Shown here piece by piece: positions 1 through 12,695 of a DNA stretch of 32,000 bases. Source of the stretch: Promethearchaeota archaeon (lineage in GTDB: Archaea > Asgardarchaeota > Lokiarchaeia > Sigyniarchaeales > SOKP01); assembly GCA_030606485.1 (NCBI GenBank), contig JAUWGH010000002.1, positions 390,001-422,000 of the forward strand, read 5' to 3'. Under the pieces are notes generated by a model, which saw only the letters and a list, made by a program, of their open reading frames with translations, was not told the origin of the DNA and did not search any database. The stretch's first letter is position 1; the number at the start of each line of letters is the position of its first letter. Position numbers and translations under genes: made by a program.

Positions 1-171
1 ATAATATTGTGATTTATTTCCTGAAATTCTATCGACTGCAGCTGTTGCTCTAGTAATTAAACCATAAGTTTCTTCCCTATCACCTAATTTTCTACCTAAC
101 TTTATTTCTTTATATTTTTCTAAAATCTCTTCTAATTGTTTAATAAATATATCCGTTAAATCATTTGGCAT
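1..171 (-). CDS. Hypothetical protein, N-terminal 57 aa (runs off the window start)
   Basis: ATG at 171 preceded by AAGGT; open to position 1: MPNDLTDIFIKQLEEILEKYKKIKLGRKLGDREETYGLITRATAAVDRISGNKSQYY. Confidence 0.55.
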   Translation of the reverse strand, partial: MPNDLTDIFIKQLEEILEKYKEIKLGRKLGDREETYGLITRATAAVDRISGNKSQYY

Positions 172-572
172 TCTTAATTACCTTTATGTTCTCTAGTTTA
201 ATTTTGTCTTTAAGCATAAAAAATTTTTTATTAATCTCAAATTTTATTAGACTTTATCAATATTATCAATTTTTTTCAATAATATTTTTTCGATCGAAGA
301 TTTTGACTTAGAGAAAATATGATATAAACTATAATTAATTATTCTCAGGAAGAAAAATCTCTACCGACAAAACGATTTTTGATATGCAATCTATAGTTAA
401 TACTTAGATATAAAAAATTAAAAAATCATAATACCCCTAAAACTTTTGAGTAAAAATACCAACTATTATTGTGATAGTTGTTATTTTTCAAAATCTAAAC
501 TCAAAATAATCAAAATAAAACAATTTTAGACAATGTTGGAAAGTTGGTATTATATTGTAAAAAATCTCTCAG

Positions 573-1301
573 GTGATTAAAATAGAAGTTTTCACACAAC
601 AAAATGATTTTAAAACATTCGAAGCCCAAATAATTAGCAATTTATATGAACAAAACCCTGATCTTAAAGAAAAAAAACAGGAACTAAAACTTAAGTTTGC
701 ATTGTTAGAAGTTCAAATGAATGAACTCATAAAGGTTGCGAAAAAAACTAATATGAAACATGCAAGAATGATTGAGACTCAATTAAATTGCGGTCTCAGG
801 GTTAGTGAATTAATCCATTTATCAATTAATCAAGTAAATCTTGAGGGAAAGTTTCTAAAAATTGAGAAAAGAGAAAAGAATCTCTATGTTGATGCATTTA
901 AGCCAAAAACGAAGAATAGCACCAGAATTCTTCCCCTAAGTGACAAAACCATCGACATTCTTAGATAACAAATTGACAAAAAGCGAAATGGATATATATT
1001 TCCATCCAATAAAGGGGTCCATTTCAACAAGTCTTCTGTAATCAGATTTATTAATAAATATGCAAGAGAGAGCAGAACTATAGGATTTAATATTGGATCC
1101 CATTCTTTAAGAAGAACTTTTGCATCATATTTAATTACAGATCCAAAAAGATCACCAGGAGAGGAACAAATCACAATTTCCGATATTTGTAGATTACTTG
1201 GCCATAAAAATATCAAAACCACAATGGAATATCTTTTCAATATTGTTAATTTAGTTGATTTCGAAAAAATAAGAACCTCTATAGATAGAATGCATAATTA
1301 A
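573..1301 (+). pseudogene. Tyrosine recombinase/integrase (catalytic domain) with one in-frame TAA at 966-968
   Basis: The frame continues past the TAA to 1301. Catalytic motifs: GLRVSE (R), PKTK (K), HSLRR (HxxR), LLGH (H), TTMEY (Y). Confidence 0.9.
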
Positions 1302-1330
1302 ATCTGATAATTAAGGAGAATAATCAAAAA

Positions 1331-1540
1331 ATGAAGAAAAAGAAGGAGACACTTGCTGAGAAAAATGTTAAGGTTGCTATAGATATCCTCAAAGAGGCAG
1401 GAGCAGAGTTTAATAAAGAAACAGGAGAATGGGAATTGCCCTCCTCTTCAAAAGAGGGAATCAAAGTGCCCAAGAAATATGAAGGGGATTATTGTGGAGC
1501 AAATTTTGTGAAGAAAGATCGAAAACGCAGAGGATATTAA
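1331..1540 (+). CDS. Small hypothetical protein (69 aa)
   Basis: ORF with AAGGAG upstream; no recognised motif. Confidence 0.6.
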   Translation: MKKKKETLAEKNVKVAIDILKEAGAEFNKETGEWELPSSSKEGIKVPKKYEGDYCGANFVKKDRKRRGY

Positions 1541-1576
1541 AAAAGAAATTATAATATTGCCGACAAAAATATAATT

Positions 1577-2122
1577 ATGTCAAGACAAGAATCGAATAAA
1601 AAATTTCAGATTACAGGTGCTTTTTATATTATCTTTGCAATTATCTTTCTAGTGTCTGGGATCGGTATTTTCGAGAATGCTTTCTTCGATTCAATATATG
1701 TATTTCAATATTTTGGTTATACTCTATTGATATTTGGAGGTTGAGAAGGATTAATTTTAATCTTCATCTCAATTATCACTCTTTTCAGTTTTAAAATCAA
1801 GAGATCATTAATATTTGGGATAATTGGATGTGTTCTGATCGGAATTAATTTCATAATAATCCTAATTGATCATTCTATGCGAATTGCGATTGGATATAGA
1901 GCATTTTTCGTTGCTCCTTTCTATATCACCCTCATAGCATGGATAATTCTCTGCTTCATCAATGGAATTATATATATTCAAAAATCGAGGTTGGAGATCC
2001 CCATATCTAAAGAGGAGAAACCAGAAGAAAAAGCTCCCGAAGGAATGAAGTACTGTTCTTCATGTGGAGAAAAAATTAAAAAACAAGCAAACTATTGTGA
2101 GTTTTGCGGTTCAGAACAATAA
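1577..2122 (+). pseudogene. Membrane protein with C-terminal zinc ribbon (CSSC-x10-CEFC), in-frame TGA at 1742-1744
   Basis: ATG 1577 is in frame with the tracked ORF 1877..2122. About four hydrophobic segments, one internal stop (FGG*EGL), and a Lokiarchaeia-like terminal zinc ribbon. Confidence 0.75.
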
Positions 2123-2185
2123 ATTAAAAAATATTTAAAATTTACTTTTTTTCTACACTCTATTTTTTTAAATTTTAATATAAAG

Positions 2186-2225
2186 AATATTTATACTGAA
2201 AAAATAATATTTATACTGAAAAAAT
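2186..2225 (+). repeat. Perfect tandem repeat, 2 x 20 bp (AATATTTATACTGAAAAAAT), upstream of the ParB gene
   Basis: Read directly at 2186-2205 and 2206-2225; each unit contains TTTATA (TATA-box-like). Confidence 0.9.
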
Positions 2226-2243
2226 AGTAAAAGGGTGAAAATT

Positions 2244-3560
2244 ATGAAAATAAAATTTGAAAATTTAGTACCAAATAAATATAATCCACGCAAACTTTTT
2301 AGAGGAGCATCTATGGAAGAGCTTAAAGAATCTACTAAGGATTTCGGACTTATAGAGCCATTAGTAGTGAGACAGCTCAAGAACGGAAAATATGAAGTTG
2401 TTGCTGGAATGCGTAGATATCATGCTTTGAAGGAGCAAAAAATAGAAGAAGTAGAATGTAATGTTCTAGATTTAACCAACAAACAAGCTATTGACGTTGC
2501 TTTTATCGAAAATATCCAAAGACAAGATTTAACTGCAATAGAAGAAGCTAATATGTTTTTAAATCGTTTAAAAATAAATCCTGAATTTTTGAAGAAATTC
2601 AAAAAATCGGAAACCGTTTCCGATTTTTTCTCTAAAAACTTAATATCTGGAGATTCCAAATTTACTAAAGAACTTGGTGATACCTATCATATAAACCCAA
2701 AAACAATCTTTAATAAACTTAGTTTATTATGTCTCCCAGAGACATTACAGAATGCTATTGAAATTGATGAATTACAATTAAGAATTGCTTATAATATAGC
2801 AAGATTGCGTCAAATAGAAGATAATGATCTTGCTCAGAAATCTATGCTTGAAATATATAATGACTATAAAAAAGAGAGAGATTCGATAAGTTTAGATGAA
2901 ATAAAAATGAGAGTATCCAAAAAAATTGAGTATTATAAATCCAAAAAAGATGAACAAGAAGAAATTACTGAACAGAGAATTCAAGAACTAAAAAGGAAAA
3001 TAAAAGAGACAAAAGAGAGCAAAGATGAAATATTGAAGAAATTAGCTAAGAAAATAATAGAAATTCATAATAATGAAGCATTTACCGATATTGATTTCTC
3101 TGAAATGGAGATTATTGAATATGATGATGATAAAGAGTTATTTGAAAAAAATGATAGAGAAACCATTTTTTCAAAAGGTGAGAAAGTTTCTGAATTTTTG
3201 GAGGAAGAAGATAAAAAATATAGGGGAAATGAAATATATGAACGAATAGTAGAAAATATTGATGATTTAGAAAATAAAATCTCAGATATTCGATTACTAA
3301 TAACTAGGGTTAAAGAAAAAAATATTACGCAATGTCCTTTCTGCTATGCAAGGATTGACCTACCTGAGATTAATAAAAAAACAGAGGAATACCAAGATGA
3401 ATTAGAAGACTTAAAATCACAACGTTCTAAAATAGCAGGTATAAGTGGTTTTATTTCAGACAGACGGAAGGCAATAAATAAGATATACAGTGCTTTCGAA
3501 TCTAAGGATAAATTTATAGAAGACTTTGAAAAAGAACTGGAGGACTTAAGAATTGACTAA
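2244..3560 (+). CDS. ParB/RepB/Spo0J-family protein with long C-terminal coiled coil and central CPFC motif
   Basis: N-terminal NPRK, GLIEPLVVR, AGMRR (GxRR) and ENIQR motifs, then an HTH-like segment and a charged helical C-terminal half with CPFC at 3333-3344. ATG 2244 follows a GGGTGA SD (track start is GTG 2235). Confidence 0.88.
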   Translation: MKIKFENLVPNKYNPRKLFRGASMEELKESTKDFGLIEPLVVRQLKNGKYEVVAGMRRYHALKEQKIEEVECNVLDLTNKQAIDVAFIENIQRQDLTAIEEANMFLNRLKINPEFLKKFKKSETVSDFFSKNLISGDSKFTKELGDTYHINPKTIFNKLSLLCLPETLQNAIEIDELQLRIAYNIARLRQIEDNDLAQKSMLEIYNDYKKERDSISLDEIKMRVSKKIEYYKSKKDEQEEITEQRIQELKRKIKETKESKDEILKKLAKKIIEIHNNEAFTDIDFSEMEIIEYDDDKELFEKNDRETIFSKGEKVSEFLEEEDKKYRGNEIYERIVENIDDLENKISDIRLLITRVKEKNITQCPFCYARIDLPEINKKTEEYQDELEDLKSQRSKIAGISGFISDRRKAINKIYSAFESKDKFIEDFEKELEDLRID

Positions 3561-4341
3561 ACCTACATATAAAGAAGTTAAACCAGACGAAAAAGTTCCA
3601 TTTGAAAAAGTAGAAGTTCATAGAATCTCAATTGATCCAGTCTTATCTCTTCTAGAATTATTAACTATAATAAATGAAAGGGAAAAAGAAGGGGTAATAA
3701 AGTTATTAGATATCTCTTTTGAAAGCTCTCCCCAATCAGCAAAATATGGCTCCAGAATTGGGTTTGGTAAAGATGAAAGACTTATTGTAAGAAGGATGGA
3801 AGAGACAATGTATGTTCCTAAAAGAACATTTAAGTTTACAAAAGATTATACAATTGAGGACGCTATTGAAGCTTTTGAAGATTTAGACCAATATCTTATA
3901 GAAACCAAACATGACTATACTTTAGACATATATCCCACTTCTCTTAATGTTTTGGATATGGGATCTAAACCAGAACGTGCACAAATGATTATAAGATTTG
4001 GGAAGAAAAGAAAAGTTGATAAAAATAGTGAAATAGGTTTAGAATTAAGTGGAGCTCAAATAATGCCACTTGATGCTATCAAACTTTTTATAGCCATAAG
4101 AGATAAAAGAACTAAAAATTGGAGAAAAGGATCAATCCCATCAAGAATTGCTGATAAAATGAAAAAATATGTTGATGGAACCTATTTTATTGAAGCTGAT
4201 GACATTAAAAACTACACAAGACATATTTATAAATCCGATTTTACAATTAAGACAACTTGTATAGTAGGTAAAGAGAGAAAAACTTTCGATAGATACACAC
4301 CAATTCCTGGTGGCAAATGTAGAAAAGTCCCTAAAGATTAA
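3553..4341 (+). CDS. Hypothetical protein (262 aa), overlapping the ParB stop
   Basis: Long ORF whose TTG start overlaps the parB end by 8 nt; no family recognised. Confidence 0.8.
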   Translation: MTKPTYKEVKPDEKVPFEKVEVHRISIDPVLSLLELLTIINEREKEGVIKLLDISFESSPQSAKYGSRIGFGKDERLIVRRMEETMYVPKRTFKFTKDYTIEDAIEAFEDLDQYLIETKHDYTLDIYPTSLNVLDMGSKPERAQMIIRFGKKRKVDKNSEIGLELSGAQIMPLDAIKLFIAIRDKRTKNWRKGSIPSRIADKMKKYVDGTYFIEADDIKNYTRHIYKSDFTIKTTCIVGKERKTFDRYTPIPGGKCRKVPKD

Positions 4342-4475
4342 TTTTTTATTTTTTACTTTCAGTCTCCCCTCTCAGTGTCCTATAAATAGATTAGAGTGCG
4401 TGGACTTACTGATTTAACAAATATTTATATTATTGATCATCCTAATTATTTTTGTCGATAAATAAATTAACAAAA

Positions 4476-4640
4476 ATGGAAAAACATAAGATGAAAACCG
4501 AAATTGATCTTCCTGATGAAGAATATAAAAAATTAAAAGAAATCTACAAAATATTTGATAAAGACATTAATGAATCTATAGAACATTTAACAATAAATTT
4601 AATAAAAGATTCTTTTACTGAAATCAAGTCTCTGATATAG
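4476..4640 (+). CDS. Small CopG/ribbon-helix-helix-like protein
   Basis: MKTEIDLPDEEYKKLKEI pattern (beta strand then helix); start uncertain (4452, 4476 or 4491). Confidence 0.5.
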   Translation: MEKHKMKTEIDLPDEEYKKLKEIYKIFDKDINESIEHLTINLIKDSFTEIKSLI

Positions 4641-4782
4641 ATTTCTTTATTTCTTCTAATCTTCTTCTTACAGACTCATTAATAAATTCATGATGTGTTC
4701 TATAACCCAATTCTATATGCTCTTTAATGATTTTTAGGATTTCTTCTATAACTTCTTCTGGAATTTTTACAATGTTCGAAAT
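4624..4782 (-). CDS. Ribbon-helix-helix (CopG/MetJ/Arc-like) protein, apparent ATT start; not in the ORF track
   Basis: Translation NIVKIPEEVIEEILKIIKEHIELGYRTHHEFINESVRRRLEEIKKSISET* fits the RHH pattern. GGGGG lies upstream of ATT and there is no ATG in frame. Confidence 0.65.
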   Translation of the reverse strand: MSNIVKIPEEVIEEILKIIKEHIELGYRTHHEFINESVRRRLEEIKKSISET

Positions 4783-4811
4783 AAATGGACCCCCAAATGA
4801 CCCCCTTTTAA

Positions 4812-4914
4812 TGGTGCGCCCGCCGGGATTCGAACCCGGGCCCCTAACGTGGCAGGCTTTTATCTATTTCTTAAGTTAAGAAAATAAAGGATAATACCAC
4901 TATACTACGAGCGC
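4812..4914 (-). tRNA. tRNA-Gly(GCC) with encoded CCA and a 29-nt intron
   Basis: Acceptor stem GCGCTCG/CGGGCGC, T-arm CCGGG-TTCGAAT-CCCGG, A73 and CCA. The anticodon stem CTAGC/GTTAG around CT-GCC-AC forms once the intron is removed (74 nt mature). Confidence 0.95.
4859..4887 (-). other. tRNA intron at non-canonical position 28/29 with bulge-helix-bulge-type junction
   Basis: Intron TTATTTTCTTAACTTAAGAAATAGATAAA. Exon TATC (23-26) pairs with intron GATA (4-bp helix), 3-nt bulges are CT|T and AA|A, and the internal hairpin is TATTT(T)CTTAA/TTAAGAAATA. Confidence 0.85.
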
Positions 4915-7682: not shown

Positions 7683-7842
7683 ATCAGATAAGTTAATGTT
7701 TTCTCACCTATTTTTATTTGGAATAGTAAATAGTCATAAAAATCAGATTTAAGTTTAAAGCTAAATTTTTTAAATTTAAATTTTGTTAAAAAGGCAAAAA
7801 AAAATTATTTAGATTCTATTTCTGTACCGCACATCGGACAAA
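7683..7842. repeat. 160-bp direct repeat, copy B
   Basis: 156/160 identical to 5951-6110; carries the functional stop of 7805..8194. Confidence 0.95.
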
Positions 7843-8194
7843 TAGTTATTCCTTTTTTAATCTCTCCTCCGCAAAAACGACAATAGAGTATTTTTTCACT
7901 ATATACTACGGGTGCTTTTGGGAGTTTTGTAGTTTGAGACACACTCTGAGCGCGTTTCCAATTAGGTGGATAACTAAGAATTCTCGTAGTCTTGATGGTT
8001 TTTTGATTACATCTATCACAACGTCCTCTTTTTAGATTTCTACTACAAGAATTGCAAATAACTCTCTCACAAGAGGGACATAAGCGAATTTCAACCCATG
8101 GATTTTTTTTTGCAATATCACGTCCACAAATATCACATGGCAGTGGGGTTTTCGGTTCTTTATTAACCTTAAAAAATTTTTTTATGAAAGACAT
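7805..8194 (-). CDS. Zinc-finger protein: N-terminal 8-Cys domain (FYVE-like spacing) plus C-terminal zinc ribbon
   Basis: C-x2-C-x15-C-x2-C-x4-C-x2-C-x8-C-x2-C, then CRFC-x10-CPMC; starts 21 nt after the ESCRT-III stop on the same strand. Confidence 0.8.
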   Translation of the reverse strand: MSFIKKFFKVNKEPKTPLPCDICGRDIAKKNPWVEIRLCPSCERVICNSCSRNLKRGRCDRCNQKTIKTTRILSYPPNWKRAQSVSQTTKLPKAPVVYSEKILYCRFCGGEIKKGITICPMCGTEIESK

Positions 8195-8215
8195 TTTAAT
8201 ATTTTTAATTACATT

Positions 8216-8863
8216 TTAGTCGTCAGATTCTTTCAATTCTTTAAGCTCATTTTCTAAATCTTTAATTCTTTGATCCCCGCCCACTGTAGGGAGTTGTATT
8301 CCTGTTTCAACCGAAATTTCAGCATCAATTTCTCCTAATACATTCATAACATCTTCATTCGAAACACTTGTGTCAACATTGATATTTTCAATTCCATCTG
8401 CAGTAATTTCCTCAGTAACTTGAAAATCTTCGATTCCTATATCAATGTCTTTGATTGTTTCGGTTATTTCAGGAATAGATATCTGTGATTTTAATCCTGA
8501 AACGGAACCAGCTATTGCTTTCATAATTCCAGCAACATCTTTAATTGCGGAGGCTTGTTCTAACTTAAATTGCAATCCTTCAAGATTTAATTTAAAGGTT
8601 GAAATTCCTTTTGACCATTTTTTAAATTGTAAATAACCCCGGGCATGAACTTCAGCACCTTTCATATCTCCTTCTTTTCGAAATTTAACAGCTTTAGTTC
8701 TTGCTTGTTTTGCTTTCGCTTCAAGTTTTTTTGCTTGTCTCTCTAAGCGTTTGTTAAAGATTTTAAGTTTAACGGTAACGGATCGAACATCTCGATCTTT
8801 TGATCTACCACCACTTAACCAACCACTTACGTCTTTTAGAAAACCCAAAATGATTCTACTCAA
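8216..8863 (-). CDS. ESCRT-III protein, Vps2/24/46-like (Snf7 family)
   Basis: Helical Snf7-type core (basic N-terminal half, acidic C-terminal half), amphipathic N-terminus and MIM1-like tail (RIKDLENELKELKE); divergent from Vps4. Confidence 0.88.
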   Translation of the reverse strand: MSRIILGFLKDVSGWLSGGRSKDRDVRSVTVKLKIFNKRLERQAKKLEAKAKQARTKAVKFRKEGDMKGAEVHARGYLQFKKWSKGISTFKLNLEGLQFKLEQASAIKDVAGIMKAIAGSVSGLKSQISIPEITETIKDIDIGIEDFQVTEEITADGIENINVDTSVSNEDVMNVLGEIDAEISVETGIQLPTVGGDQRIKDLENELKELKESDD

Positions 8864-8918
8864 TTATTTTAAAATTAATCTTCTTAAAATTACTTAAGAA
8901 ATAAATATTTATTTTAAT

Positions 8919-8985
8919 ATATATCTTAAAAAATATTTAAGATATTTCAATCTATTTTTATTAGTAGATATATCTTAAAAAATAT
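8919..8985. promoter_or_regulatory. Repeated motif in the divergent ESCRT-III/Vps4 promoter (candidate operator)
   Basis: ATATATCTTAAAAAATAT at 8919-8936 and 8968-8985; inverted repeat ATATCTTAAA-N5-TTTAAGATAT at 8921-8945. Confidence 0.45.
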
Positions 8986-9008
8986 ATTCTGTTGTGAGTA
9001 AAAATTAA

Positions 9009-10226
9009 ATGAGCTCTTTAGATTCTAAGTTGTTTTCTTTTGCAATGAAAGAAGCAAAAGAAGCAGTTGAGTATGATAAAAAGGCTGAATATCAAAAAGC
9101 CATTAATAAATATAGTAGAGCAGCTGAAATATTAATTCAATTTGCAAAATACAATAAAAATCCAAGTTTGCAAAAACTATGCCAAGAAAAAATTCACGAA
9201 TATGTCTCCCGTGCTAAGACATTAAAAAGAAGTTTGAAACCTTATAAAAAAGGAAGGATTTCAACTCGTAAGAGAGTAACTAAAAAGGGAAAAGATTCAG
9301 AAGAAATCGAAGAAGAGGAGATTTTAACCAAAGAGCAACAAGAACTTAGAGAAGTTATTTCAGGAACAATCATCACCGAATTACCTGATATTCGATGGGA
9401 CGATATTGCAGGATTAGTGGAATGTAAACAATCTCTTAGAGAAGCAATAGTTTTGCCTATAATGAGACCAGAATTATTTACCGGTGCTAGAAAGCCATGG
9501 TCTGGTATTCTTTTATATGGTCCTCCAGGTTGCGGAAAAACTCTCCTTGCTCAAGCGGCAGCAACAGAATGCGATGCAACTTTTTTTAGCGCATCAGCAG
9601 CTGAATTATTATCAAAATGGCTTGGGGAAAGTGAGAAATTAATTAGCTCATTATTTAAATTAGCAAGACTTGAAGCACCAAGCATCATATTTTTTGATGA
9701 AATTGATTCTATTACGACTTCGAGGGGATATGGATCGGAGAGTGGTGGAGAGAGAAGAATCAAAACTCAATTATTAGGTGAAATTCAAGGTCTTAAATCA
9801 AGGACTGAAAAATTACTTTTAATTTTAGGTGCGACAAATCGACCTTGGGATATTGATACAGCAATGTTGCGAAGATTTGAGAAAAAAATTTATGTCCCTC
9901 TCCCAGACGAAGAAGCGAGAGAAGTGATTTTTAAAATACATACAGCTGGGGTAAATCTCTCACTTACAGATAATGATTTTAGAGAACTTGGAGAAAAAAC
10001 TGCGGGATATTCTGGATCTGATATTGCAAATGTTTGTAGAGAAGTGATTATGAGACCGATAAGAGAGTTAGATATGAGTGGAAAAATAACTGCCGAAGCA
10101 GAGGAAATTATCGTTAGAGATGTAAATATAGAAGATTTTAACAAAACACTTAAAAAAATAAAACCAATTGTATCTGAAAAAGAAATAAAGAGATACCATG
10201 AGTGGTTTGAACAATTTGGTGAATGA
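9009..10226 (+). CDS. vps4: Vps4-like AAA+ ATPase with N-terminal MIT domain
   Basis: MIT-like helices (AVEYDKKAEYQKAINKYSRAAEIL), GPPGCGKT Walker A, IIFFDEID Walker B, GATNRPWDID...RRFEK and GYSGSDI. Confidence 0.93.
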   Translation: MSSLDSKLFSFAMKEAKEAVEYDKKAEYQKAINKYSRAAEILIQFAKYNKNPSLQKLCQEKIHEYVSRAKTLKRSLKPYKKGRISTRKRVTKKGKDSEEIEEEEILTKEQQELREVISGTIITELPDIRWDDIAGLVECKQSLREAIVLPIMRPELFTGARKPWSGILLYGPPGCGKTLLAQAAATECDATFFSASAAELLSKWLGESEKLISSLFKLARLEAPSIIFFDEIDSITTSRGYGSESGGERRIKTQLLGEIQGLKSRTEKLLLILGATNRPWDIDTAMLRRFEKKIYVPLPDEEAREVIFKIHTAGVNLSLTDNDFRELGEKTAGYSGSDIANVCREVIMRPIRELDMSGKITAEAEEIIVRDVNIEDFNKTLKKIKPIVSEKEIKRYHEWFEQFGE

Positions 10227-10255
10227 TAAATAGTAATTAGGTGCATCCTTGAACG

Positions 10256-11137
10256 ATGGAAAGACAAAAAGCTAAAGAAGTCCCAAAAGAAGAAATTGCT
10301 GTATCAGATGAAAAAATTGAAGAACTAAGGAAAGAATTAGAAGATCTAAGAAAAAAAAAAGAAATAAAATTACAAGCAGAACAAAAAAAGGTAAAGGAAA
10401 AAGTAGAACCAACAATTTCCATCGATTTAGATGATATAGAAAAAAGATTAGATGCTATTGAAGAATTTCTTGAAGAAAAATCTCAAGCAACCGAGGTTAT
10501 AATTAAAGCAAAAGATTTGGATGAGATTGAGAAAGAACTTCAGTCTATCGAAAGCGAAATTGTAATTGAACCAAAGGTTATAGAAAAGGAATTAACTTCT
10601 TATGAAATATTAATTAAAGAGCATACATGGCTTGAAGAAGCTAGATATGAATATATGTTTTCTGCTCCAGATACAAAGAAAAATGCTAAAGATTATCAAT
10701 CTTGGTTAATTGAGTGGAGCCAAGTAATTTATGATTATGCCCGAATATCGATATTGCACGTTCTCTATATTAGAAAATTAAATGCTGAGAAACCATTTTC
10801 TAAACTACGCAATAGAGATGGCGCAATCGCTGCAATAGCTCAAAAATTAGTGGATCAAAATATTGGAGTATGGTTAAATAAAAAAAAAAAAGAAACATTA
10901 AGAATTTATTGGAAAACTTTAGATGAGTGGGCAGAAGAAATACTTAATTGGGCACGGGAAAACGGTAAATTAGAACCAATTCTAACTTTTGAAATTCGCG
11001 AGTCTGGGGAACTTTTTGCAGATTTGCCCAAAAGGGATTTAACACGAATATTTAAAAGATTAGAAAAAGAAGGCAAAGGAGAAGTAATTAAATCTGAAGA
11101 AGGAGATATTACTTTTAAAATAAATTTGAATTATTAA
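10256..11137 (+). CDS. vps25: ESCRT-II Vps25 (EAP20)-like protein with acidic helical N-terminal extension
   Basis: C-terminal tandem winged-helix pattern (QSWLIEWSQVI, YWKTLDEWAEEILNWARENG, IFKRLEKEGKG); directly after Vps4. Confidence 0.75.
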   Translation: MERQKAKEVPKEEIAVSDEKIEELRKELEDLRKKKEIKLQAEQKKVKEKVEPTISIDLDDIEKRLDAIEEFLEEKSQATEVIIKAKDLDEIEKELQSIESEIVIEPKVIEKELTSYEILIKEHTWLEEARYEYMFSAPDTKKNAKDYQSWLIEWSQVIYDYARISILHVLYIRKLNAEKPFSKLRNRDGAIAAIAQKLVDQNIGVWLNKKKKETLRIYWKTLDEWAEEILNWARENGKLEPILTFEIRESGELFADLPKRDLTRIFKRLEKEGKGEVIKSEEGDITFKINLNY

Positions 11138-11206
11138 ATTTTAATTGAAATTCTTTTTTATAAATGCTTATTTGATTTACCTTAATTTTCAGATTCAGAA
11201 AAAACT

Positions 11207-11761
11207 TTATTTATTTGCTTCTTTCATGATATAGTGAAAGATACAGCGTTTCTTACCTGTAGCCTGACGCTCTTTTAGGATGAGCTTTATATCTGGGTTG
11301 TATCCTTCAAGGATACAATAGTCCACATATTTGCAATAGATTTTGGCATAATCACCTAAACCCCAATCTTCAGCGCCATTATAAAAAGTGCAATTTTTCA
11401 CTTTTATAATAAAATCACTGTCTTCTATGCTCGCTATTGGTTTAAAGTTTTTTATTGAATCTATGTCTGAATATATTAACCAGTTCTTGAATGTTAAGGG
11501 TTTCCCCTCTGCTCTTACCCTTTCAGCAATTCTTTTTCCCCTTTCCCTTCCAAAATATTCCACAGCCTCCTTAAGGAGCGCCTCGCCATCTTCAGGTCCT
11601 AGCTTCTCGATTATAAATTTGGCAACACTAGAAAACAACTGAGAGGCTAAACCAAATCCCGGTGTCTGATATTTATCTCCAATCTCTATTTTTTGGGGGA
11701 GAACATCATCTAAATATTCGAAATCAAAACCTTTTTCATTTTCTCTTTTTAAATCATCCAT
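11207..11761 (-). CDS. L-2-amino-thiazoline-4-carboxylic acid hydrolase-like (V4R/HNOX-clan) protein
   Basis: AVEYFGRERG, VKNCTFY, YCKYVD...GYNPD and a late Cys (KRCIFHY). Confidence 0.75.
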   Translation of the reverse strand: MDDLKRENEKGFDFEYLDDVLPQKIEIGDKYQTPGFGLASQLFSSVAKFIIEKLGPEDGEALLKEAVEYFGRERGKRIAERVRAEGKPLTFKNWLIYSDIDSIKNFKPIASIEDSDFIIKVKNCTFYNGAEDWGLGDYAKIYCKYVDYCILEGYNPDIKLILKERQATGKKRCIFHYIMKEANK

Positions 11762-11873
11762 TTCTTTTCAACATTATATTAGAAAACTTTATATAATTAA
11801 TTAATGCAAAAATAAGTTATTTTCTTCCATCTTCTCTGCGTTTCTCTAAATTAGGGGTATTTCCTTTATTGAA

Positions 11874-12590
11874 CTAAGAGATCGAAGGAAAATACCACTT
11901 CTTTCCTCTTAAGTATGACTCATCTTTTTTGGCAAAACCACTGGCTTCTAAAGAATTTAATGCCCTCAATGCTCTTTCTTGAGACCATGATAATTCTGAG
12001 CATGCATCTTCTAAAGAAATAAAACCCTTTTCTGAAGCTAATGAAATTACTTTTGCCTCATCATCGGTATGTTGAATGGAGAAAAATCTAACTTCAATAA
12101 CTCCATCATCAAGCTCCCGAATATTAGGAATTACTTTCCTTTTCTTTAAAAGATACATAGCTTTAATTACATCTTCAATCTCTAAATGATTCATGAGAAT
12201 ACCTGTATTCACAATTTCAAATACGTCAGAGATCGGCATAATACCTCCAGTTTCTTCTTTTTCCATTAAAACTCTTTGGTATGCTAACATACCTAATTTT
12301 TCATGATCAATTTTTCTCTTTTTTCTTAAGACGTCTATTTCTTCAATTCTTTCAGTAATAATTCGCGAAGTAGGAATATCAAATTTCCTCTGTAGTTCTT
12401 TAATTTCATCTCTTAATTCAGGATCTAAAGCAAGAATTACTCCGTGTTTGATTGCAATTTCTCTTATTTTGTCTTTGGCAAATTCTCTTGTTTTTGCTTC
12501 TTCTTCAAGTTCTTTTTGCTTTAACTCAATGCCCTTCCTCTTCATTGCTTCTTTTAGATCAATATCATCCTCTATTTTGCGAATCCCCAT
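11874..12590 (-). CDS. vps22: ESCRT-II Vps22 (EAP30)/Vps36-like winged-helix protein
   Basis: GGIMPISDV, LSWSQERALRALNSLEASG and terminal WYFPSI; ATG 12590 follows a GGAG SD (track start 12617). Confidence 0.8.
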   Translation of the reverse strand: MGIRKIEDDIDLKEAMKRKGIELKQKELEEEAKTREFAKDKIREIAIKHGVILALDPELRDEIKELQRKFDIPTSRIITERIEEIDVLRKKRKIDHEKLGMLAYQRVLMEKEETGGIMPISDVFEIVNTGILMNHLEIEDVIKAMYLLKKRKVIPNIRELDDGVIEVRFFSIQHTDDEAKVISLASEKGFISLEDACSELSWSQERALRALNSLEASGFAKKDESYLRGKKWYFPSIS

Positions 12591-12695
12591 ATAGTTCTCC
12601 GACTTTTTTATATGCACTTACTTTTATTTTTTAATATTATAATTATTAAATAATAACAAGATTATATTTTTTTTTCGCTTTATTAATTTAAGATA

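Follow-up and report, generated by a model that had tools for sequence, protein, structure and literature searches.

The DNA analysed here, called the window throughout, is a 32,000-nt stretch (G000:C1:390001-422000) of a 3.75-Mb draft genome of 29% GC in 13 contigs, and a glycine tRNA gene spans positions 4812-4914 of its minus strand. ARAGORN calls no tRNA in the unedited window, and an Rfam search of the window returns one tRNA (4815-4914, minus strand, 42.1 bits), which aligns solely with a large insert. Once 4859-4887 is removed, the remainder forms a standard cloverleaf whose anticodon loop is valid, and ARAGORN then reports a 74-nt tRNA-Gly(gcc). The gene is divided as follows.

4888..4914, minus strand: exon 1 of tRNA-Gly(GCC), Sprinzl positions 1-28, placed by the excision test and invariant across 7 related alleles
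4859..4887, minus strand: intron of 29 nt at 28/29, 14% GC, placed by the excision test; missing in intron-less homologues, with length and position kept in relatives
4812..4858, minus strand: exon 2 of tRNA-Gly(GCC), Sprinzl positions 29-76, with the anticodon GCC at 4851-4853, from ARAGORN; it matches the intron-less Gly(GCC) genes of related families

Among 1,788 parsable single excisions, ranked by cloverleaf score alone with the splice motif left out, the 29-nt excision at 28/29 comes first (39.25 versus 37.0 for the next). The sequence-only reading of this locus as a tRNA-Gly(GCC) with an intron at 28/29 is borne out by this ranking. The cloverleaf that it had called perfect is a good one after removal of the intron, but it contains a U13·U22 mismatch and G·U pairs at 10-25, at 30-40 and in the acceptor stem. 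The spliced product aligns to the intron-less Gly(GCC) genes of related families, G30·U40 pair included, and its predicted junction reads CCU|AGCCUGCC. That the locus is a real tRNA-Gly(GCC) gene with an archaeal intron of the enzyme-spliced type in its anticodon stem is well supported, and splicing itself is inferred from sequence.

Splice motif and precursor fold

The predicted bulge-helix-bulge (BHB) elements, all on the minus strand, are listed below.

4890..4893: exon strand UAUC of the central BHB helix (Sprinzl 23-26, the 3' strand of the D arm in the mature tRNA), from motif geometry and alleles
4861..4864: intron strand GAUA of the central helix, from motif geometry; invariant in all alleles
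4865..4886: intron hairpin, helix h', from folding; two compensatory pairs in a distant allele
4887..4889: 5' bulge (C27, U28 and intron nucleotide 1), with the predicted cut at 4888/4887, from BHB geometry
4858..4860: 3' bulge or loop (the last two intron nucleotides and A29), with the predicted cut at 4859/4858, from BHB geometry

The central helix consists of four Watson-Crick pairs between exon nucleotides -6 to -3 and intron nucleotides n-5 to n-2, and six contiguous pairs of h' lie next to it. Both bulges are 3 nt long, and the predicted cuts follow the second base of each. This is the geometry that had been proposed from the letters of the window, and chance seldom reproduces it: a central helix of four Watson-Crick pairs arises at the site in 0.7% of 20,000 dinucleotide-shuffled introns, and such a helix together with an h' of at least 5 pairs in 0.015% of them. 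When the intron was relocated to 57 other positions, the complete helix appeared once.

On the exon side the motif is less regular. In the strict register the outer exon helix h is a single G·U pair (probability 0.01 or less), and the outer exon-exon helix that closes the 3' bulge in a strict hBHBh' motif is absent; to that extent the earlier statement that such a helix is not evident holds. It does not extend to an offset register, in which G18-G19-U20 pairs with G30-C31-C32 as a 3-bp exon helix (probability about 0.25-0.35) and, in the folding model, may shut off the 3' side into a small internal loop. By its sequence the motif is of the relaxed HBh' class, as had been proposed in calling it relaxed, or, with the offset exon helix, a bulge-helix-loop.

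In the computed ensemble between 10 and 37 C, the central-helix pairs have probabilities of 0.39-0.49 (0.39-0.42 at 37 C itself) and the D-stem and anticodon-stem pairs 0.00, which predicts that the precursor adopts the splice fold by default. The D-stem value also agrees with the earlier claim that the 3' strand of the D arm must unpair. The central helix is already within the unconstrained minimum-energy fold of the precursor. Energies at 37 C, which take no account of modifications, Mg2+ or tertiary contacts, are -22.8 kcal/mol for HBh', -25.3 for the structure with the offset helix and -16.0 for the cloverleaf plus intron hairpin. The folding z-score of the whole gene is an unremarkable -1.45.

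A cut at a neighbouring position, such as 27/28 or 29/30, would alter the anticodon stem slightly. Errors in the prediction of relaxed motifs are on record, as in S. tokodaii, where one predicted BHB junction differed from the measured junction (PMC4307357), and the equivalent intron of a second genus in the family can be read at either 27/28 or 28/29. In the window gene, however, the junction shows no slippage: one-base shifts cost 3 points of cloverleaf score, break an anticodon-stem pair and retain 1-2 of the four central pairs. The excision at 28/29 is also the sole Gly(GCC) reading with a complete central helix within the ten best excisions, and we regard a shifted junction as very unlikely.

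Conservation of the intron among alleles and relatives

A metagenome scan open to intron-less and intron-bearing forms alike returned four loci, all four with a 29-nt intron at 28/29. In G002 and G003 the gene is identical to that of the window, and across these two and four further alleles (L146-L149) the position and length of the intron are the same and the central helix is invariant. In two of the four loci, L148 and L149, the exons are nearly the same and the intron interior is much changed, beside a PfkB gene that is 76% identical. Their introns keep the central-helix strand and the terminal bases, and two h' pairs are altered on both sides (A-U to C-G and U-A to G-C). In the allele alignment 40 of 40 counted cells are paired, compared with 45-65% and no compensatory pairs in slid controls. 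Because 20-23 of 500 shuffles equal the observed covariation values, in a set of four distinct sequences with one divergent allele and with a structure derived from the window sequence itself, we treat the covariation of h' as supportive of the splice structure. A one-contig intron variant in the DNA run X1 has one base added and one lost with the motif kept, but its other differences are not visible and it is given no weight. In G001 and G004, of the same genus, neither a Gly(GCC) gene nor a PfkB orthologue was found, so the locus counts as not recovered rather than as intron-free.

Farther afield the Gly(GCC) gene is intron-less in 23 recovered related genomes, and in other relatives its introns lie at 8/9, about 15/16, 22/23, 27/28, 30/31, 37/38 or 39/40; the search patterns favour genes without 3' introns, and these counts, compared without a tree, are not frequencies. 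G013, from another genus of the family, has a 39/40 intron and nothing at 28/29 in the syntenic gene beside PfkB. In the genus g2, three genomes carry a 30-nt intron unrelated to that of the window, for which 28/29 is the best position and 27/28 comes close; its central helix has A26-U where the window gene has C26-G. Among the g2 introns (L123:1441-1545, L124:1441-1545, L145 and L125:1169-1272), some species appear to have 28/29 and others 27/28, possibly a one-base intron slide. As a separate observation, the anticodon arm of the window gene (within 4812-4858, minus strand) is closer to that of family f2 than to that of most genera of its own family.

The intron is lineage-restricted, and on these comparative grounds it was therefore likely gained within the family, before the arrival of the adjacent element described below. 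The pattern among relatives fits the repeated lineage-specific gains of Goswami et al. 2026 and the intron-rich sets of Valentin-Alvarado 2024. Position 28/29 of tRNA-Gly(GCC) might even be a recurrent insertion hot spot in Promethearchaeia, with at least two independent hits (the window genus and g2), a suggestion that we make tentatively and consider somewhat doubtful. We propose that the intron has been maintained since its gain by selection on the splice structure.

The tRNA gene set of the genome

BLAST and pattern searches recovered three Gly tRNA genes in the genome (GCC, CCC and TCC). No second Gly(GCC) gene, which together with an unspliced locus had been named as refuting the reading, was found by these searches in the 13-contig draft, in which the census missed some anticodons and a heavily interrupted copy may have escaped. 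That census, approximate since its parser leaves positions uncertain for several D-loop introns, counts 44 tRNA genes, of which 11 are intron-less, 8 have a 37/38-compatible intron only and 25 have non-canonical or several introns. The 25 include tRNA-Sec. About 24 of the 44 have non-canonical introns, and about three quarters of the tRNA genes have inserts. The Ala(TGC) gene carries two introns.

Several other loci in the set are unusual. The gene at G000:C2:186808-186969 (plus strand) has two introns (37/38 and 59/60) and is best read with the anticodon UAU, as a tRNA-Ile(UAU), which is unusual for archaea. ARAGORN reports a tRNA-Sec candidate with an insert in the anticodon arm at G000:C2:189902-190018 (minus strand). 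Genes for Lys(CTT), Arg(GCG) and Arg(CCG) were not recognised in the genome scans and are probably hidden by introns or unassembled.

These counts bear on whether the window gene works at all. It could be a tRNA copy that an AT-rich insertion has inactivated, with GGU and GGC read by another tRNA; standard finders do miss the gene, and BHB-like shapes do arise by chance in AT-rich DNA, as in the window's protein-coding genes, where a search for BHB introns gave 23 chance-like matches and none that convinces. Yet the alleles differ at just two exon positions altogether, against many in the intron, where pairing is kept, the searches found no other Gly(GCC) gene, and inserts of this kind are the rule among the tRNA genes of the genome. 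We consider a dead copy extremely unlikely and retain the reading of a working gene.

The intron also stands apart from transposed intron families of the Thermoproteales type, with their near-identical copies in other tRNA genes. No such copies occur in the genome, where the longest exact match is 15 nt, a length that 92% of shuffled introns reach or exceed.

Splicing endonuclease and ligase

Two EndA paralogues are encoded on contig C10 of the genome, at G000:C10:66737-67336 and 670247-670867. The first (L001, 199 aa) is an EndA α whose closest relative is the A. pernix EndA α (E 3e-37), aligned through the Crenarchaea-specific loop. In this loop K57 and R59 align to A. pernix K44 and R46. 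The triad Y140/H148/K179 aligns to Y125/H133/K164, and R172 and W196 align to R157 and W183. The second (L002, 206 aa) has neither the catalytic His nor the Trp nor the loop motif, in keeping with a β subunit, and α4-type and M. kandleri chains are its nearest sequences. The typing of EndA subunits that had been suggested thus gives a catalytic α (L001) and a non-catalytic β (L002). EndA relatives in Promethearchaeota/Promethearchaeia include those of 2R3_4 (97%), ABR01 (96%) and WORB4 (78%). Together with the ESCRT-III, Vps4 and ESCRT-II genes of the window, they assign the genome to Lokiarchaeia (Promethearchaeia). RtcB is also encoded in the genome.

The roles of the catalytic and recognition residues and of the loop come from A. 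pernix, in which the loop confers cleavage of relaxed motifs (Hirata 2011, PMC3241643); EndA without the loop cuts HBh' poorly (Kaneta 2018, PMC5829648). By homology, then, the genome appears to encode an EndA of the (αβ)2 type with the L1 loop, a broad-specificity type. At the sequence level this upholds the earlier claim that the lineage has a broad-specificity enzyme, in that both subunits are present and the loop has the equivalent of K44. The claim is not new, because an (αβ)2 EndA with the L1 loop has already been reported in Asgard archaea (Kaneta 2018, PMC5829648). According to Goswami et al. 2026 (bioRxiv 10.64898/2026.10.13.758758), no Asgard EndA has been assayed and the substrate range is unmeasured. 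Compared with the published (αβ)2 enzymes with the L1 loop (PMC3241643, PMC5829648), the pair described here has the same Y/H/K triad, the R and W, the loop K/R and a non-catalytic β paralogue; it differs in its full-length β (206 aa), which lies near the α4-type and M. kandleri chains.

An integrated element at the 3' end of the gene

The tRNA gene adjoins an integrated element, the features of which are given below.

G000:C1:386710-394814 (window <1-4814; L033:6710-14814), no strand: integrated element of 8,105 bp, from empty-site contigs and a direct repeat; judged not to be the source of the intron
4815..4828, minus strand: 14-bp att core, from the 3' side of the T-loop to the discriminator, from the direct repeat; empty-site contigs join exactly there
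G000:C1:386710-386723: second copy of the att core, 8,105 bp away and outside the window, from the direct repeat
4812..4814, minus strand: CCA encoded in the gene, lying to the element side of the att core; TTC or TTT takes its place in element-free alleles
4790..4805, minus strand: G-rich motif inside the element end, repeated inside the other end; a probable integrase arm-type site
573..1301, plus strand: tyrosine integrase gene with an in-frame TAA at 966-968

In contigs from two DNA runs of one study (X1 and X2), the flanks of the element meet exactly, with 14 letters in common, and the X2 empty-site contig passes through the tRNA gene without a gap, intron included. Two RNA runs from the same study gave nothing over the stretch, which is silent on expression. 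Three further alleles are free of the element, L147 with an identical intron and L148 and L149 with a diverged one. In G003 and L146, other sequences are inserted at the same site of the intron-bearing gene. The att core, made up of the final 14 nt of the tRNA, lies 30 nt to the 3' side of the intron. Since element-free alleles carry the intron and the att core is confined to those last 14 nt, the intron predates the element, lies outside the crossover and was no bar to integration.

The proximity of the two had been read differently: an AT-rich intron beside a mobile element was taken to suggest late acquisition, an argument that finds no support here. A rival account has the element bringing the intron recently through an intron-containing attP, and there is a published precedent in the tRNA-Thr gene of Caldiarchaeum (Sugahara 2012, PMC3293823). 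An integrase-bearing element does adjoin the tRNA, and of 28 introns scored in the genome, with a median of 32% GC, this one is lowest at 14%. Low GC does not, however, indicate youth, with the orthologous L148 intron at 38% GC and one 37/38 intron of the same genome at 15%. The intron lies outside the att overlap and is present at the empty site, a crossover in the att core cannot place it, and G003 and L146 have different elements behind this intron-bearing gene. No word of the intron longer than 11 nt occurs in the element, and a pattern search of viral contigs for a donor gave no match. Goswami et al. 2026 likewise saw no link of intron gains to mobile elements. Delivery by the present element is largely refuted, and we hold recent delivery through such an attP to be highly improbable. 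A former element, since lost and with a long att of the 5' type, might conceivably have been the source.

The Caldiarchaeum tRNA-Thr(GGU) gene (PMC3293823) is similar in that an intron-bearing tRNA gene stands beside an integrase element with a tRNA fragment as the direct repeat. There, however, the repeat is the 5' part of the tRNA and holds the intron, whereas in the window gene it excludes it; the window intron moreover exists without the element.

Other genes in and around the element are noted here for completeness. Two tandem related genes of 220 aa in the element (L033:8527-9186 and 9503-10171, minus strand) end in an R-x4-H-like motif (RNNAAH/RNNSAH); NCBIfam gives no match of weight, and the motif is suggestive of HEPN-type defence proteins. 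A gene at window 2235-4341 (plus strand) fuses a ParB N-terminal domain to a long coiled coil with a CPFC motif and overlaps a 262-aa gene for which Pfam and NCBIfam give no match. An ESCRT cluster at window 7805-12617 encodes a zinc-ribbon protein, Snf7, Vps4 (MIT-AAA), an ESCRT-II protein (Vps25-like) and EAP30/Vps36.

Relation to known archaeal tRNA introns

Introns outside 37/38 had been described as typical of Thermoproteales. That description is too narrow, with non-canonical tRNA introns reported as common in Asgard archaea (Valentin-Alvarado 2024, PMC11291895; Goswami et al. 2026, bioRxiv 10.64898/2026.10.13.758758). Goswami et al. 2026 describe repeated lineage-specific gains, and by their account none of the newly found Asgard intervening sequences has been demonstrated as spliced. 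Like these introns, that of the window is short (20-30 nt), lies off 37/38, is missed by standard finders, combines four central pairs with one flanking helix, occurs with an (αβ)2 EndA, is lineage-patchy and has no link to mobile elements. The Asgard papers, in contrast, centre on Jordi-, Frey- and Atabeyarchaeia, the main text of the preprint naming neither Lokiarchaeia nor Promethearchaeia, and the window genome has fewer introns per gene than their focal families.

Among Crenarchaeota, A. pernix tRNA-Trp(CCA) and S. tokodaii tRNA-Leu(GAG) (PMC4307357) also combine an anticodon-stem intron and a BHB-like junction with an (αβ)2 EndA with the loop, and A. pernix tRNA-Lys(CUU) (PMC4307357) is likewise without the outer exon helix. 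They differ in the tRNA, the exact position and the phylum, and they were confirmed by cDNA or cleavage, whereas the present case is read from sequence alone.

With high confidence, we regard the locus as a working, single tRNA-Gly(GCC) gene with a standard archaeal enzyme-spliced intron at a non-canonical site, processed by the host EndA and RtcB and with the intron gained before the element. In the mechanism that we propose, the precursor would pair exon positions 23-26 with the intron GAUA and form the intron hairpin, a pairing potential evident in the sequence. This fold, computed to be favoured over the cloverleaf, would leave the D-stem and anticodon stem to form only after splicing. The host (αβ)2 EndA, with the L1 loop in its α subunit, would cut after the second base of each bulge, as its homologues suggest, and RtcB would presumably ligate U28 to A29. 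The intron would have arisen in the family before the relatives with a PfkB now 76% identical branched off, and the 8.1-kb element would have entered the 3' end of the gene later, unrelated to the intron.

The intron is an ordinary one for Asgard archaea, and it adds one well-supported case to a published phenomenon. The gene could serve as a test substrate for EndA: its junction is unambiguous, its alleles covary and the αβ pair has been identified. It also separates an intron and an element that had seemed linked, which has a modest bearing on how such introns arrive. On the same tentative reading that makes 28/29 a hot spot, the locus would further be a clean natural counter-example to the idea that introns shield tRNA genes from integration, since several different elements have integrated at the 3' end of a gene that bears the intron.
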